Shown: positions 54,873 through 62,038, counted from the first letter of the stretch. The stretch: DNA of 64,000 nucleotides from Escherichia coli (GCF_003334405.1 NZ_QOWM01000002.1); one strand, 5' to 3'. The notes: generated by a model not told the origin, from the sequence alone. Translations and numbers: made by a program.

Positions 54873-54900
54873 GATTCTGCAGACACTGTCTGCAGAATTC
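54873..54900. repeat. Palindromic element (CAGAC-N3-GTCTG core) between convergent yhcH and yhcG stops
   Basis: GATTCTGCAGACACTGTCTGCAGAATTC, near-perfect 13-bp arms. Confidence 0.7.
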
Positions 54901-54913
54901 GAAACCGCTGAAA

Positions 54914-56041
54914 TTAACGGCGTCTATAGCCTTCCTCTAGCACCGCCTGTGTTCGAACGAGTTCATCTGCGAGTCGTTTCTCATCAGGTAGTTGCATCTT
55001 ATATTCGCTTGCCAGAACGGTGTTAGGCAAACCTGCCAGAGCATAATGCGCTTCTCCGGCTCCTTTCTCTGCACAGAGAACCAGACCGATGGGCGGATTT
55101 TCATCCGGTAGCGTCCAGTGCTCTTTGGCGTAGTTGAGATACATATTCATCTGTCCGGCATCGCTATAGCTGAATTTGCCCACTTTTAGATCGACGATTA
55201 GCAGGCAGCGTAAATGGCGGTGGAAAAACAGCAGATCGACACGAAACCAGTTGTCATCAATGCGTAACCTTCGCTGCCGACCAACAAAGGCAAAATCATC
55301 CCCAAGTTCCAGCATGAAATCCATCAGGTGGTTGATCAGCGCCTCCTCAAAATCGGATTCTGAATATTCATCTTTCAATTCCAGAAATTCGAGCACAAAG
55401 GGATCGCGTATCGCCTGTTGCGGAAGAATATGCGTCTCGGCAGGAGCGTGTTGTTGCAGCATGGCTGATTTGTCATGTGACAGTAGTGTCCGCTCATAAA
55501 ACTGGGTCGCAATTTGCCGCTCTAGCTGGCGAACAGACCAGCCACAGCGGAGCGTCTCTTTTTCATAAAAGCTGCGGGCGTCAGCGTTTTTAACGGAAAG
55601 TAAACGGACGTAGGTGGACCTGGGCAAGGGGAAAGATTTGGCAGACAGCGTCTGCCAAATCTTTGCCGATGGGAATTCTGCAGACGGTGTCTGCGGAATT
55701 CCCAATGGTGTTAATTCGCCAGACATTGTCTGGCGAATTTCAACATGTTGAAAAAAGAGGTAAAAAAGCCTCATTTGGCGTAAGTTTTTTGCAGAGAACC
55801 CACGCTTATACCTTAGACATAAATCCTTTGATAGTCGCTTGATTAGCTGCGCACCATACGCAGCCCTGGCCTCGCCACCTTGTTCAAATTCGACAATTCG
55901 TCGGCCAATTTCCTGGTACGTCGCGGTCATTAACGCGTTAACGCTACGTACCGTTTCCGTCCGGGCGCTATCGACCAGATGAATAATACCGTCGTGGATT
56001 TGCTGGTAGCCTGCTGTGGTTCCTTCTGAGAGCGATTCCAT
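54914..56041 (-). CDS. yhcG: DUF1016 / PD-(D/E)XK nuclease-superfamily protein
   Basis: 375-aa ORF; C-terminal half contains D...(D/E)XK-like residues (RVDLLFFHR ... LIVDLKVGKF); residues ~101-137 are encoded by three tandem palindromes. Confidence 0.85.
   Translation of the reverse strand: MESLSEGTTAGYQQIHDGIIHLVDSARTETVRSVNALMTATYQEIGRRIVEFEQGGEARAAYGAQLIKRLSKDLCLRYKRGFSAKNLRQMRLFYLFFQHVEIRQTMSGELTPLGIPQTPSAEFPSAKIWQTLSAKSFPLPRSTYVRLLSVKNADARSFYEKETLRCGWSVRQLERQIATQFYERTLLSHDKSAMLQQHAPAETHILPQQAIRDPFVLEFLELKDEYSESDFEEALINHLMDFMLELGDDFAFVGRQRRLRIDDNWFRVDLLFFHRHLRCLLIVDLKVGKFSYSDAGQMNMYLNYAKEHWTLPDENPPIGLVLCAEKGAGEAHYALAGLPNTVLASEYKMQLPDEKRLADELVRTQAVLEEGYRRR
55632..55739. repeat. Three tandem palindromes (CAGAC-N3-GTCTG cores) lying in-frame inside yhcG
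   Basis: AAAGATTTGGCAGACAGCGTCTGCCAAATCTTT (55632-55664), GGGAATTCTGCAGACGGTGTCTGCGGAATTCCC (55671-55703), AATTCGCCAGACATTGTCTGGCGAATT (55713-55739). Confidence 0.8.
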
Positions 56042-56225
56042 TATCTGTCCCTTTATATGGAGCTAAGTTGAATAATGGAATGAGCTATACTCTGGGGGGT
56101 GAGCACTGAACAATTAAGAACAGCGTATTACATTTACTTTCCCCAAGATATGCGAAGAGCTTTCCTGAAACATTAACCGATCGTATAAAACGAATGCCTG
56201 ATAGTACTCCTGTCCGGCATTGTTA

Positions 56226-56942
56226 TCACAAGTAGACTACGCTTATCACAGCTTTCCCATCAAGTTCGATTTTTTCTGAACCGCCTAAATCATTCGCGAT
56301 AGATGCGCTCACCTGAAGCGGTATAATGGCGTTCGTTACAGGAGTTGGGGTTGTTTCACCTGGTTTTACAAAGGTGTAATAATAGCTTTGATCGACTGCA
56401 AGCGGATAAGCGGTGAGCGTTTGCCATGCTCTTTTTTGCCCTGTTATGACGGCATCTGCACCTGCTATTGATACAGCTAACGTCTGGCTACCATTGCTGG
56501 CACTAATGTTGTTGCTATCAATTAACACGGCATAACTACCGATATTTTTATTATCTTTTGTTTTCCCTAAGCCGAATAAGCGCGTTGTCTGGCTAATATA
56601 ACCTCCGCCATTTAAGGTATATTTTACACCACTCTGACCCCCACTATCTTTTCCGGTGGTCATACTATCCATTCGTGTATCACGAGCGGTAATCGCAATG
56701 CCGGTAGCGGATTCGCAAGTTATAGTCATATTAATATTACGTGTTCCAATCTGTGTGTAGTGCTGCGTTGAAAGTCTATTGACTGAATGACTACCGAAGT
56801 TAACAACTCCGCCGTTGCTTAGTATTGGAGTACAAGCTGCAGCTTCCAGAGTCACCTTAACGTCAATTGATACTCTATCAGCGGCTTGCGCTGACATGGC
56901 AAAAAAGGCACTTCCGGCAATCAGTAATTTTACATTGTTCAT
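56226..56942 (-). CDS. yhcF: Fimbrial-like subunit/adhesin candidate (GltF/YhcE/YhcF family)
   Basis: 238-aa ORF with signal peptide MNNVKLLIAGSAFFAMSAQA; C-terminus ELDGKAVISVVYL parallels GltF KLDGNVTISVQYL. Confidence 0.8.
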   Translation of the reverse strand: MNNVKLLIAGSAFFAMSAQAADRVSIDVKVTLEAAACTPILSNGGVVNFGSHSVNRLSTQHYTQIGTRNINMTITCESATGIAITARDTRMDSMTTGKDSGGQSGVKYTLNGGGYISQTTRLFGLGKTKDNKNIGSYAVLIDSNNISASNGSQTLAVSIAGADAVITGQKRAWQTLTAYPLAVDQSYYYTFVKPGETTPTPVTNAIIPLQVSASIANDLGGSEKIELDGKAVISVVYL

Positions 56943-59881: not shown

Positions 59882-60556
59882 TTATTTTAAGTCAGTGACA
59901 TATTTATTACCGCGATAACCATATCGGCTGGCTGGGTAAAACTCGACTTTTGTATCCGTAGCGTTTGTTAATGCAGTAGTTGTACTGGTGTGTGGTAGAA
60001 AATAGGTCTTATTTATAGCCCCCGTTTTTCCTGAAGGGAGCGTTTTAAATTGTAAGGTCATACGAACGACATAATTACTGGGGTTGCTAATCTCAATTTG
60101 GTCGCCATTTTTACGCCATTCCAGGAATTTCCAGGTCTCTCGCTCTTCCGGCAGGGAAGCCGGGTGGATCAGTACAGGTAGATCCTGACGAATTGAAACA
60201 GTAACTCTGCTGCTCTTGTCATCTTTTGGTGGAATACCTTCGAACGTTACGCGTTTCAGCTCTTCTGATTGCAGAGGAACAGTCGCCTGAAGTAAAAATC
60301 GAACCTGTTGTACTTGACCGGCTTCAACACGAATAACGGGCTGAGTCGGGATTAAACGAATTGATTTATTGCTTTCAGGCAAATCAACAATGGTGGTGTA
60401 AAGCAATGAAGGATGATCATCTGTATTCTTAATATTAATACTAGCTTCACCACGCTTTTCATCAACCAGCAATACTGATGTTTCAGGAACCATCCCTGTG
60501 GCTAAGGTATTCATTGATGTTGTTATAAATACAGTGAATGTAATGTGTCTGAGCAT
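59882..60556 (-). CDS. yhcA: Periplasmic fimbrial chaperone (PapD-like)
   Basis: 224-aa ORF with signal peptide, immediately upstream of the usher. Confidence 0.88.
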   Translation of the reverse strand: MLRHITFTVFITTSMNTLATGMVPETSVLLVDEKRGEASINIKNTDDHPSLLYTTIVDLPESNKSIRLIPTQPVIRVEAGQVQQVRFLLQATVPLQSEELKRVTFEGIPPKDDKSSRVTVSIRQDLPVLIHPASLPEERETWKFLEWRKNGDQIEISNPSNYVVRMTLQFKTLPSGKTGAINKTYFLPHTSTTTALTNATDTKVEFYPASRYGYRGNKYVTDLK

Positions 60557-60727
60557 TTAAATTAAAACTCCTGTAATAATGATAAATAACGCAGAAACAT
60601 ATTGTTAATATATGTTATGCACTGTTTGCGATGAGATTGATTAAGACAGACCATGTCATAGGGCATAATCTGTCCGAGTTATAGCTAACTGGTTAATGCG
60701 TAAAAATAAAAACTGTATTACAAGTTC

Positions 60728-61492
60728 TTATAAATACTGAACGCTGATAGTGACGTTACCATCCAGTTTGATCGTTTCATCAGAACCAAGAATAGTATTG
60801 TCATTTACCGCAGCATCAATCAGTAACGGGAAGGTGACCGCTGTAATGGCAACAGGTGTCAGTTCCCCTGTTTTTGCAACAGAATAACCGCGCTCGATTG
60901 CTGAGCAACTTGTCAGCGAGCAGAATGCGCCATTAGATGAGGCTTTCCATGTGGGGGTCGCTGCTGACCAGTGGTCAGTTTGAATCAGGTCGACAGGAAT
61001 TTCACCTGTATCGTCCGCCGCGTGAATCCCACCATTAGACCTGTCAATACCAATGGATGCAGCGCCAATTTTTTGTCCATTAGGCGCAGAACCTAAACCA
61101 AAGGCGTTTTTCGTTCCCTTCATATCTACGAGAGTATCATAAGCTTTTTCAATATAGGATGTGTCGTTTAACGCTACAATGGTCGACTGACGGTTATCCT
61201 TGGAGGTTACAGCAATTAGCGTTGGTGCTGTGCAGGTTATATTTAATGTGCTGTTTTTGCGGCCCAGTTGAACCAGTTTATTACTTTTACCGGTCGGATT
61301 CAGCGCACTGTTATGATGTTTCCCATAGTCAACAATGCCGCCGCCCGTAACAACTGGGGTACATGCACCAGGGGTATACTCGCCGATGATAGTTAATTCT
61401 GTATCAGTTGAATCTGTTGCCATGGCACTGAATGCTGCAACAGAAAGTGCTGCACAAATAGCAGCTGTTGTGAGGTTCTTTTTGAAAAACAT
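60728..61492 (-). CDS. gltF: GltF: secreted protein of the YhcE/YhcF family (historically called a glt operon regulator)
   Basis: 254-aa ORF with signal peptide MFFKKNLTTAAICAALSVAAFSAMA; paralogous to yhcF. Confidence 0.88.
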   Translation of the reverse strand: MFFKKNLTTAAICAALSVAAFSAMATDSTDTELTIIGEYTPGACTPVVTGGGIVDYGKHHNSALNPTGKSNKLVQLGRKNSTLNITCTAPTLIAVTSKDNRQSTIVALNDTSYIEKAYDTLVDMKGTKNAFGLGSAPNGQKIGAASIGIDRSNGGIHAADDTGEIPVDLIQTDHWSAATPTWKASSNGAFCSLTSCSAIERGYSVAKTGELTPVAITAVTFPLLIDAAVNDNTILGSDETIKLDGNVTISVQYL

Positions 61493-62010
61493 ATGAACAT
61501 ATCCTTAATAACAAATTTATTTTTTAAAATAAAAAGCTGAAGCAGTATATATATCTGTTTGTGAATGTAAATAAATAACTCGTTCAGAAATAGCCAACTT
61601 GCTGGGATGTATTTATTTAATGAATTTTATAGTTACGATCATGTGAATAATAAGGTGCTGGTGAGGTGGTTTGTGGTGATAATTATTCATTACATGAATG
61701 TTTGCGCTGAAAAATAGGAAAATATATAGATAATTAAGGATAATATATTGGTTTTTTATATTCATATTTTGTATATTAATATCGAGACAATTTACATGGA
61801 ATGAAAAGACTGAATAGCTTGCAGAATCGGTATTGTCAGAGGTGTTAACAAGTAATTGAGACGGATTGTAAATGAGAAATTGCTTGATGTGCTTCACTCA
61901 TCAGACTTGGTGAACAAAGCACAATTTATTGAAAATTATCCCTATTATAGGAAAGGTCAAACGCTCATGCCGCATTTGCCAGAAAACAACGCGCACTTCG
62001 TCAGTAATTT

Positions 62011-62038
62011 GATTCGCCAGACACAGTCTGGCGAATTC
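62011..62038. repeat. Palindromic element (CAGAC-N3-GTCTG core) just downstream of the gltD stop
   Basis: GATTCGCCAGACACAGTCTGGCGAATTC; same family as copies at 54873 and 55632-55739. Confidence 0.7.

Follow-up and report, generated by a model that had tools for sequence, protein, structure and literature searches.

Five palindromes (P1–P5; Table 1) lie in and around yhcG, a gene of the DUF1016/YhcG nuclease family, on a 64,000-nt stretch of Escherichia coli DNA (NZ_QOWM01000002.1; the whole stretch is called the window below). They are almost certainly copies of an element that belongs to this gene family, termed here the DUF1016 intragenic palindrome, and comprise three units amplified in frame (P2–P4) and two orphans at the borders of a variable segment (P1 and P5). 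As judged from genome sequences, the DUF1016 intragenic palindrome is a near-perfect palindrome of 25–33 bp at one fixed codon position of YhcG/DUF1016 genes throughout Bacteria. This position is located between the motifs R.FYL..P and LSWSHY of the DUF1016_N domain, ∼290–450 nt from the start of the gene. The general form of the element is (A)ATT-N3-5 bp core-N1-3-core'-N3-AAT(T), the core of the E. coli subfamily being CAGAC/GTCTG. On balance, the explanation favored here is that the palindrome is constrained as DNA and acts as a cis site for the nuclease encoded by the very gene that carries it. The original prediction, made from the window alone, could not show that this motif characterizes the DUF1016/YhcG nuclease genes as a family.

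CAGAC-N3-GTCTG (CAGACNNNGTCTG) matched exactly five times in the 64-kb window, compared with a mean of 0.05 in shuffled sequences, none of which reached five, and all five palindromes that had been predicted with this core were located. Each of the five has arms complementary over at least 8 bp, the subfamily core, and outer ATT/AAT. Folding of P1–P5 gave stable hairpins (−15.6 to −25.8 kcal/mol; z −4.4 to −7.3). When P2 is extended to 55629–55667, it comprises 18 bp at 94%. The arms of P1 (ATTCTGCAGAC) correspond to the left arm of P3, and those of P5 to the arms of P4 (ATTCGCCAGAC); those of P2 are ATTTGGCAGAC/GTCTGCCAAAT. As predicted, two copies (P1 and P5) are positioned just past gene stops and three (P2–P4) in a coding frame, that of yhcG. 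The latter make up nt 303–410 of the gene, right after RLFYLFFQHVE and ahead of STYVRLLSV, and their cores recur with a period of exactly 39 nt, that is, 13 codons. Their reading frame, ATT CNN CAG ACN NNG TCT GNN GAA, encodes I-x-Q-T-x-S-x'-E/K and fits IRQTMSGE (P4), IPQTPSAE (P3) and IWQTLSAK (P2). P4, which immediately follows the family motif R.FYLFF, probably represents the family's native unit. The GAATTC (EcoRI) sequences at P1, P3 and P5 stem from the self-complementary AATT at the foot of the arm, joined to the codons GAA TTC (E-F); GACNNNGTC within the core is presumably a Tth111I-type site.

Table 1. The five palindromes and the surrounding genes, with positions in the window.
Feature	Position	Strand	Description
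P1	54873–54900	.	GATTCTGCAGACACTGTCTGCAGAATTC; perfect 12-bp arms; orphan between the convergent stops of nanQ (yhcH; 54854) and yhcG (54914)
P2	55632–55664	-	AAAGATTTGGCAGACAGCGTCTGCCAAATCTTT; 15 bp perfect; in-frame yhcG unit, (K)IWQTLSAKS(F)
P3	55671–55703	-	GGGAATTCTGCAGACGGTGTCTGCGGAATTCCC; single T/C arm asymmetry; in-frame yhcG unit, (G)IPQTPSAEF(P)
P4	55713–55739	-	AATTCGCCAGACATTGTCTGGCGAATT; 13 bp; in-frame yhcG unit, (E)IRQTMSGEL
P5	62011–62038	.	GATTCGCCAGACACAGTCTGGCGAATTC; orphan, 13 nt beyond the stop of gltD (62052)
yhcG	54914–56041	-	375-codon open reading frame; DUF1016_N (residues 19–184) and YhcG_C PD-(D/E)XK nuclease domain (residues 208–360) by Pfam
yhcF, yhcE, yhcD, yhcA, gltF, P5	56171–62051	-	variable segment, missing in many E. 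coli strains
nanQ (yhcH)	54390–54854	+	conserved left neighbor
gltD	62052–63470	-	conserved right neighbor

To place these copies in a wider context, the pattern ATTCNNCAGACNNNGTCTGNNGAAT was scanned in one genome per species (100,044 species, 298 Gb). Because 18 of its bases are fixed, only ∼4 chance matches are expected in 298 Gb; at least 120 loci were found. The matches listed come from almost every bacterial phylum, and 95 of the 120 loci among them contain a match within or adjoining a YhcG homologue (tblastn with YhcG). Of the ∼159 listed core matches near a homologue (the array locus L079, described below, excluded; L numbers denote loci of this analysis), 144 are located 300–450 nt from the start of the gene. 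Those in homologues share, among the matches listed, the one frame I-x-Q-T-x-S-x'-E directly past a conserved R.FYL..P, and in short-form homologues the palindrome directly precedes LSWSHY. The two positions per arm that the pattern leaves free were almost always complementary among the matches listed, and the encoded residues therefore covary as the codons dictate: R (CGT) with D (GAC), R (CGG) with A (GCC), Q (CAA) with V (GTT), L (CTC) with G (GGA), P (CCG) with A (GCG), and H (CAC) with G (GGT). The YhcG/DUF1016 family comprises 21,194 clusters at 50% identity (E < 1e-3), and its representative proteins contain more variants (ICQT.SGK, IWQT.SAK, IVQT.SAQ and IGQT.SDQ), which are palindromic too when back-translated. 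A second strong palindrome was observed elsewhere in the N-terminal domain of some genes (L180/L181, nt 68; L131, nt 119; L063, 10864–9902), examples being TCGAGGCGGCGCGCAAGCGCGCCGCCTCGA, encoding IEAARKRAAS, and ATTCTTGCTACGCTGTCGCAAGAAT, encoding ILATLSQE.

Because the species scan itself selected for the palindrome, a second sample was drawn independently of it. Eighty viral-contig loci were collected via the C-terminal peptide F[LM][LM]E[LM]Gx[GD]F, yielding 62 distinct genes, which is a modest sample. In 45 of the 62, the strongest hairpin of the entire gene was found at nt 283–367, with arms of 8–15 bp, compared with mostly only 5–7 bp in composition shuffles. With a looser threshold (score ≥ 8), 48 of the 62 genes had a hairpin at this position, and the remainder mostly retained a 5–7-bp remnant around CA-C/G-TG. 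Perfect hairpins with arms of at least 11 bp occurred at 0.44 per kb in the genes versus 0.065 per kb in their flanks (∼7-fold). The arm sequences are unrelated between subfamilies (AATTGCGAACGC...GCGTTCGCAATT; CAATTGCGTCCGCA.TGCGGACGCAATTG; AATTGTCGTATCA.TGATACGACAATT; AAAAGGTGAGAC...GTCTCACCTTTT; and AATTGTGCAACA...TGTTGCACAATT, the last of which encodes the classic family motif IVQQAVAQL). Loss of the hairpin is not tied to a dead nuclease, since hairpin-less genes retain the catalytic motifs.

For the analysis of covariation, sequences were aligned with MAFFT, anchored on the Trp codon of LSWSHY and unfitted to structure. Paired cells made up 77% of the helix, versus 57% in shuffles and ∼34% when the partner was slid. 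Double-sided changes numbered 164, versus 64 ± 7 in shuffles (0 of 500 reached the observed value), the covariation score was 0.505 versus 0.174, and 11 of the 13 pairs exhibited compensatory change. RNAalifold independently predicted the same helix. Two loci (L158 and L160) have the same palindrome, ATTCGCCAGACAGTGTCTGACGAAT, between the same flanking motifs but in another reading frame (EFARQCLTN). Covariation and the shift of frame together demonstrate that the conserved object is nucleic acid, not peptide: compensatory changes maintain the complementarity of the arms, and the encoded residues vary. The family motif (IxQTxSxEL, IVQQAVAQL and others) would, then, be largely set by DNA self-complementarity, which changes how alignments and profile models of the family are to be read.

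Within E. coli, the palindrome family is not a dispersed repeat. The three arm types were matched in 5,122, 4,431 and 3,559 of 5,426 genomes, in the nanQ–gltD locus only, and had 2, 0 and 0 plasmid places, respectively; palindromic sites were apparently counted on both strands, which leaves one to three sites per genome. At least five haplotypes (A–E) of the nanQ–gltD interval were distinguished. Haplotype A lacks yhcG and carries a lone palindrome, AAATTCGCCAGACACTGTCTGGCGAATTT, between both stops; its left flank is that of P1, its right (gltD-side) flank that of P5, and its position relative to nanQ is the one P1 has. Haplotype B contains P1, yhcG and gltD in this order, and haplotype C is the arrangement of the window (P1, yhcG, yhcFEDA, gltF, P5), in which yhcG and the variable segment are flanked by P1 and P5. 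In haplotype D (726 genomes, including BL21), P1 is missing together with the C-terminal two thirds of yhcG; a 477-bp segment stands in their place, and its junction coincides exactly with the (left) edge of P2. Haplotype E (O111:H8) has an 80-nt deletion that removes P2 and P3 and causes a frameshift. Either insertion or deletion may account for the events that separate these haplotypes. The 477-bp segment (L203 1756–2232, E. coli NH-21) is single-copy and contains a 101-amino acid open reading frame (ORF) annotated as "transposase"; an active insertion sequence behind the junction was rejected, as this ORF has no Pfam match and the segment occurs once.

The palindromes of E. coli behave as breakpoints and slippage points, with their arms changing in concert. 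Three independent rearrangement junctions fall at palindrome edges. In strain SCPM-O-B-8794, P3 and P4 are fused to a chimera with mismatched arms, which is the product expected of core-to-core slippage. P1 of strain M11957 exhibits a compensated G:C to C:G change on both arms together with a change at the center, the flanks being identical; in allele L207, the whole region around the palindromes has diverged. If the palindromes promote such events, they would explain the insertion/deletion polymorphism of the nanQ–gltD interval, including that of BL21 and the B2 strains. Frequent flip-flop inversion, an idea prompted by two reverse-complementary copies elsewhere (L091 and L118, see below) and by toggling of the center between C and G in close relatives, was rejected for E. 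coli, because a flipped P3 was found in 0 of 3,420 genomes.

In the favored explanation, the native unit P4 would have been amplified in frame to three 39-nt units, P2–P4, within a loop modeled with low confidence, and units are lost in E. coli through slippage from core to core. The palindrome would form a cis-acting DNA hairpin or cruciform that is bound or cut by the encoded nuclease, putatively a dimeric enzyme resembling NucS and Holliday-junction resolvases, and its role would be autoregulatory or that of an "own-gene" site. P1 and P5 would be by-products of palindrome-stimulated recombination. That the hairpin or cruciform is recognized by the encoded nuclease in this manner, a proposal made by analogy, is possible, if somewhat doubtful. 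It is consistent with the co-inheritance of gene and palindrome and with the predicted dimeric, NucS-like fold. The fold of the YhcG nuclease domain is nearest to NucS/EndoMS (2vld, 5gke), followed by Bax1 and Can2, and an earlier sequence study likened the domain to YraN and to archaeal Holliday-junction resolvases (PMC1189080). Enzymes of the NucS/EndoMS and resolvase type are dimeric and act on mismatched or branched DNA, and by analogy a cruciform or hairpin would be a plausible substrate of YhcG. The Pfam match of DUF1016_N in YhcG contains 29 residues over and above the 137-position model, which corresponds to two additional 13-residue units. Residues 100–134 of the AlphaFold model have a predicted local distance difference test score below 50 and form a loop between helices 84–96 and 141–148; the repeats P2–P4 are therefore placed in a region predicted to be unstructured, which probably tolerates insertions. 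YhcG also matches PDC-S02, a candidate defense model of PADLOC (E = 3e-131). No model matching YhcG was found in NCBIfam, a sequence search of the PDB revealed no relative, and the literature searched yielded nothing on how YhcG or PDC-S02 works or on palindromes within DUF1016 genes.

A more general proposal would be that DUF1016/YhcG (PDC-S02) is a nuclease family in which each ORF carries the hairpin or cruciform that its enzyme recognizes. Gene and structure would form an obligate unit that sets expression or marks "self," can expand into arrays (three units in E. coli, 37 in a Rhodothermales metagenome-assembled genome), and can seed orphans and rearrangements. This proposal is tentative and, as it stands, on the unlikely side. 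If true, the obligate gene-plus-structure unit would constitute a hairpin element of a new, nuclease-associated class that differs from the repetitive extragenic palindromes (REPs) with their associated transposases (RAYTs), from attC sites, and from clustered regularly interspaced short palindromic repeats (CRISPR). The family is common on mobile elements and in defense islands, and the palindrome is a concrete candidate for the substrate or regulatory site of its uncharacterized nuclease. Among known systems, parS within spo0J/parB is similar in that a palindrome lies inside the coding sequence of a DNA-binding protein, by which parS is bound. However, parS is conserved in sequence, its arms do not covary, and it acts in chromosome segregation, whereas binding by YhcG is putative. 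The attC sites of integrons, which act as folded single strands, are likewise imperfect palindromes conserved in structure rather than in sequence, and some copies of the YhcG type are also found at gene 3′ ends. In contrast to the latter, attC sites are 57–141 bp long, contain extrahelical bases, lie outside ORFs and require IntI; no integrase is present near yhcG, and the intragenic copy is the rule.

Several observations weigh against the proposed own-nuclease site. About one quarter of the family members retain only a short remnant of the hairpin. The shuffle control of the covariation analysis ignores relatedness; the slid control is free of this weakness and gives a concordant result. 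In several E. coli lineages, yhcG is decaying through frameshift, internal stop, truncation or deletion; pseudogenes were observed in M11957 (L208 615–1742) and O111:H8 (L204 1815–2862), B2 strains do not contain the gene, and yhcG seems to be dispensable in E. coli. Extra copies near homologues were found in just 3 of 111 genes (L052, L115 and L157), and the link between the YhcG protein and the palindrome is drawn from sequence comparison. Within one subfamily, conservation of the core could reflect a double constraint on the protein, with Q-T encoded by one arm and S by the other, instead of recognition of the sequence as DNA. Finally, templated correction of quasi-palindromes could keep the arms perfect without any function.

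This last point leads to the strongest rival explanation, a functionless quasi-palindrome that perpetuates itself. An ancestral palindrome in a tolerant loop or helix would have its arms restored by template switching faster than point mutations erode them; the arms would drift together, selection on the protein (I...L/V...L) would prevent loss, and amplification, orphans and junctions would be side effects of instability. Templated mutation at quasi-palindromes is reportedly an established mechanism, known from Ripley and from the Lovett laboratory. Hotspots of this kind, such as that in thyA of E. coli, also have arms that are corrected toward complementarity by template switching, and the compensated change in P1 of M11957 took place within the species. 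The strand symmetry of the arm mismatches (see below) fits this explanation, as do the free drift of arms between subfamilies and even among the three units of one gene, the loss of units through slippage and through the 80-nt deletion, and the fact that neither a partner gene nor an extragenic copy is conserved. However, known hotspots are mutational curiosities of single genes, whereas the YhcG palindrome has persisted throughout an entire protein family. Perfect hairpins with arms of at least 11 bp are ∼7-fold rarer in the flanks, and retention at one codon position over essentially all phyla, and through a change of frame, is hard to credit without selection. Moreover, complementarity reaches the center positions, which serve as primer in the templated mechanism and are not generated by it. 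A functionless quasi-palindrome is thus considered rather unlikely, though it is to be taken seriously. Irrespective of which explanation applies, the family offers a natural case for how long perfect palindromes persist in coding DNA.

Whether DNA or RNA is constrained bears on the next rival, an intragenic mRNA hairpin that would control yhcG through RNase III cleavage, ribosome pausing or premature termination, with P1 and P5 as transcript-end hairpins. The predicted RNA hairpins are very stable, the covariation resembles that of structured RNAs, and P1 and P5 are placed just past stop codons. A sense-strand RNA helix is expected to tolerate G·U far better than A·C. However, in the 42 hairpin-bearing rows of the alignment, arm mismatches were G·T in 22 cases, A·C in 20 and other in 31, so that G·U is not favored over A·C. 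The innermost pair (alignment columns 24/40) is A-T and Watson–Crick in 31 of the 42 rows, although the 1-nt loop it encloses cannot form there and the symmetry would be useless for an RNA hairpin; column 24, its left member, is a third codon position. Loop sequences, in addition, are not conserved. The symmetry of the mismatches and the complementarity up to the center favor a strand-symmetric constraint, and it is moderately likely that DNA rather than RNA is constrained. Such a constraint could be a cruciform, a hairpin of either strand or a process that copies one arm onto the other. The arm positions that differ among P2, P3 and P4 of the one gene are self-complementary within each unit, which argues for intrastrand pairing or arm-to-arm copying, and not for half-sites that are read independently.

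The promoter/terminator scan reported a T-run after 0 of the 5 palindromes, in agreement with the original prediction that the terminator-like copies are not followed by a clear one, and the intrinsic terminator (G+C stem plus T-run) was rejected as a class for all five. A covariance-model scan of 54000–63000 with Rfam gave no match at E ≤ 1. Control of yhcG by an mRNA hairpin is therefore regarded as improbable. P1, P5 and the lone palindrome of haplotype A do resemble bidirectional intrinsic terminators in being hairpins with a G+C core and A/T-rich feet between convergent stops, and they probably also act as weak bidirectional transcript-end (terminator or stabilizer) hairpins. They differ from such terminators in the lack of a T-run by the criterion of the scan, and in that three copies of the palindrome lie within an ORF and others in the YhcG genes of other genomes.

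The original prediction had also suggested a mobile miniature element; in the corresponding explanation, an element similar to REPs or to miniature inverted-repeat transposable elements would have inserted three times in frame in yhcG and twice between genes. Intergenic orphans (P1, P5 and the lone copy of strains without yhcG) are in line with this, as are two orphans with identical sequence and unrelated flanks in one Clostridiaceae metagenome-assembled genome (L118 and L119), and in-frame palindromic elements are known in Rickettsia. For E. coli, however, the suggestion fails, as all arm types are limited to one locus in the 5,426 genomes, with 0–2 plasmid places. Among the listed core matches near a homologue, 144 of ∼159 occupy a single codon position within one gene family, the palindromes show no target-site duplication, and the curated MG1655 record contains no repeat feature (repeat_region) at their sites. 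A mobile element is thus very improbable. That the copies could not be assigned to a named repeat family, as originally noted, was borne out by this record and by Rfam.

REPs, their mosaic arrangements (BIMEs) and the associated RAYTs (TnpA_REP) are similar in that short hairpin palindromes are tied to a nuclease-type gene, which copies can flank, and in that structure is conserved above sequence. In contrast, REPs lie outside genes, are dispersed in hundreds of copies with a GTAG-type motif and are associated with a Y1 HUH enzyme, whereas the YhcG palindrome occupies one codon position inside its gene, a single locus in E. coli, and is linked to a PD-(D/E)XK nuclease. Membership in REP/BIME was rejected because three of the five copies lie within an ORF and each arm type has one to three sites per genome, at a single locus. 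Rickettsia palindromic elements also insert palindromic DNA in frame into ORFs, with the peptide tolerated on the protein surface. However, these are 100–150 bp long, restricted to their lineage and found in many unrelated genes, whereas the YhcG palindrome has 25–33 bp and one position in one family across Bacteria; an in-frame mobile element of this kind does not agree with the single position of the 144 core matches. Binding sites of dimeric regulators had been the other suggestion of the original prediction. The least probable rival, operator sites of a dimeric host transcription factor for nan, yhc or glt genes, would explain symmetric sites near gene ends but hardly merits consideration, given that the motif follows YhcG homologues across phyla whatever the neighbors, that three of the five copies are within a coding region, and that the variable arm positions are self-complementary within a copy and different between copies, which a reading as two half-sites would not require.

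The extra copies outside E. coli differ from each other. In L052, the extra copy is found at the stop codon and has the arms of the internal copy; in L115, N-terminal fragments are arranged in tandem, each ending at a palindrome; and in L157, the extra copy precedes the likely start by 42 nt. At this frequency, a second copy conserved at the 3′ end was rejected as a general feature of the gene, and the rarity of extra copies implies that the orphans of E. coli are not a general part of the system. A further amplification was found in a Rhodothermales metagenome-assembled genome (L079, JAJECE010000060.1; 2430–5468, minus strand), where ∼37 tandem units of 78 nt each contain the palindrome (ILQTVSVES...). 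This array is a single ORF of 1,012 codons directly upstream of a yhcG homologue (1198–2361), open despite a unit divergence of 24%. It is not a CRISPR array, being one ORF in which the sequence between palindromes is homologous; P2–P4 were rejected as CRISPR because the units differ in their arms and the spacers are just 6–9 nt long and coding. The next gene upstream of the Rhodothermales array (5515–6942) has, by eye, a DUF3883-like C terminus.

Intergenic orphans were also observed at L091, L118, L119, L059 and L010. Those of L091 (9272) and L118 (6275), in two Clostridia metagenome-assembled genomes, are located at an apparently orthologous intergenic site after the −10-like GATATACTT. One palindrome is the exact reverse complement of the other, with the orientation of the left flank kept, which resembles inversion in situ. 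The orphan L119 comes from the same Clostridiaceae genome as L118; its palindrome is identical and its flanks are unrelated. Many matches are located within ∼250 nt of the ends of metagenome contigs (L021, L037, L046, L059, L074, L075, L085 and L113), and many PADLOC PDC-S02 models and database proteins begin or end at the palindrome. De Bruijn assemblies may break at perfect palindromes, which may thus be a technical source of "DUF1016 N-terminal" fragments; metagenome fragments that end at the palindrome are therefore not biological evidence.

Two features of the surrounding segment complete the description of the locus. In the window, yhcE (56939–57490) is intact with 183 codons, whereas in MG1655 (L205 7686–9430) it is interrupted by IS5R (insH10), and MG1655 itself is therefore not the source of the window. 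Upstream of yhcG (56042–56225 in the window), the noncoding RNA G0-10703 of RegulonDB is reportedly transcribed divergently, antisense to the 5′ end of yhcG, and induced in stationary phase (PMC7967276).

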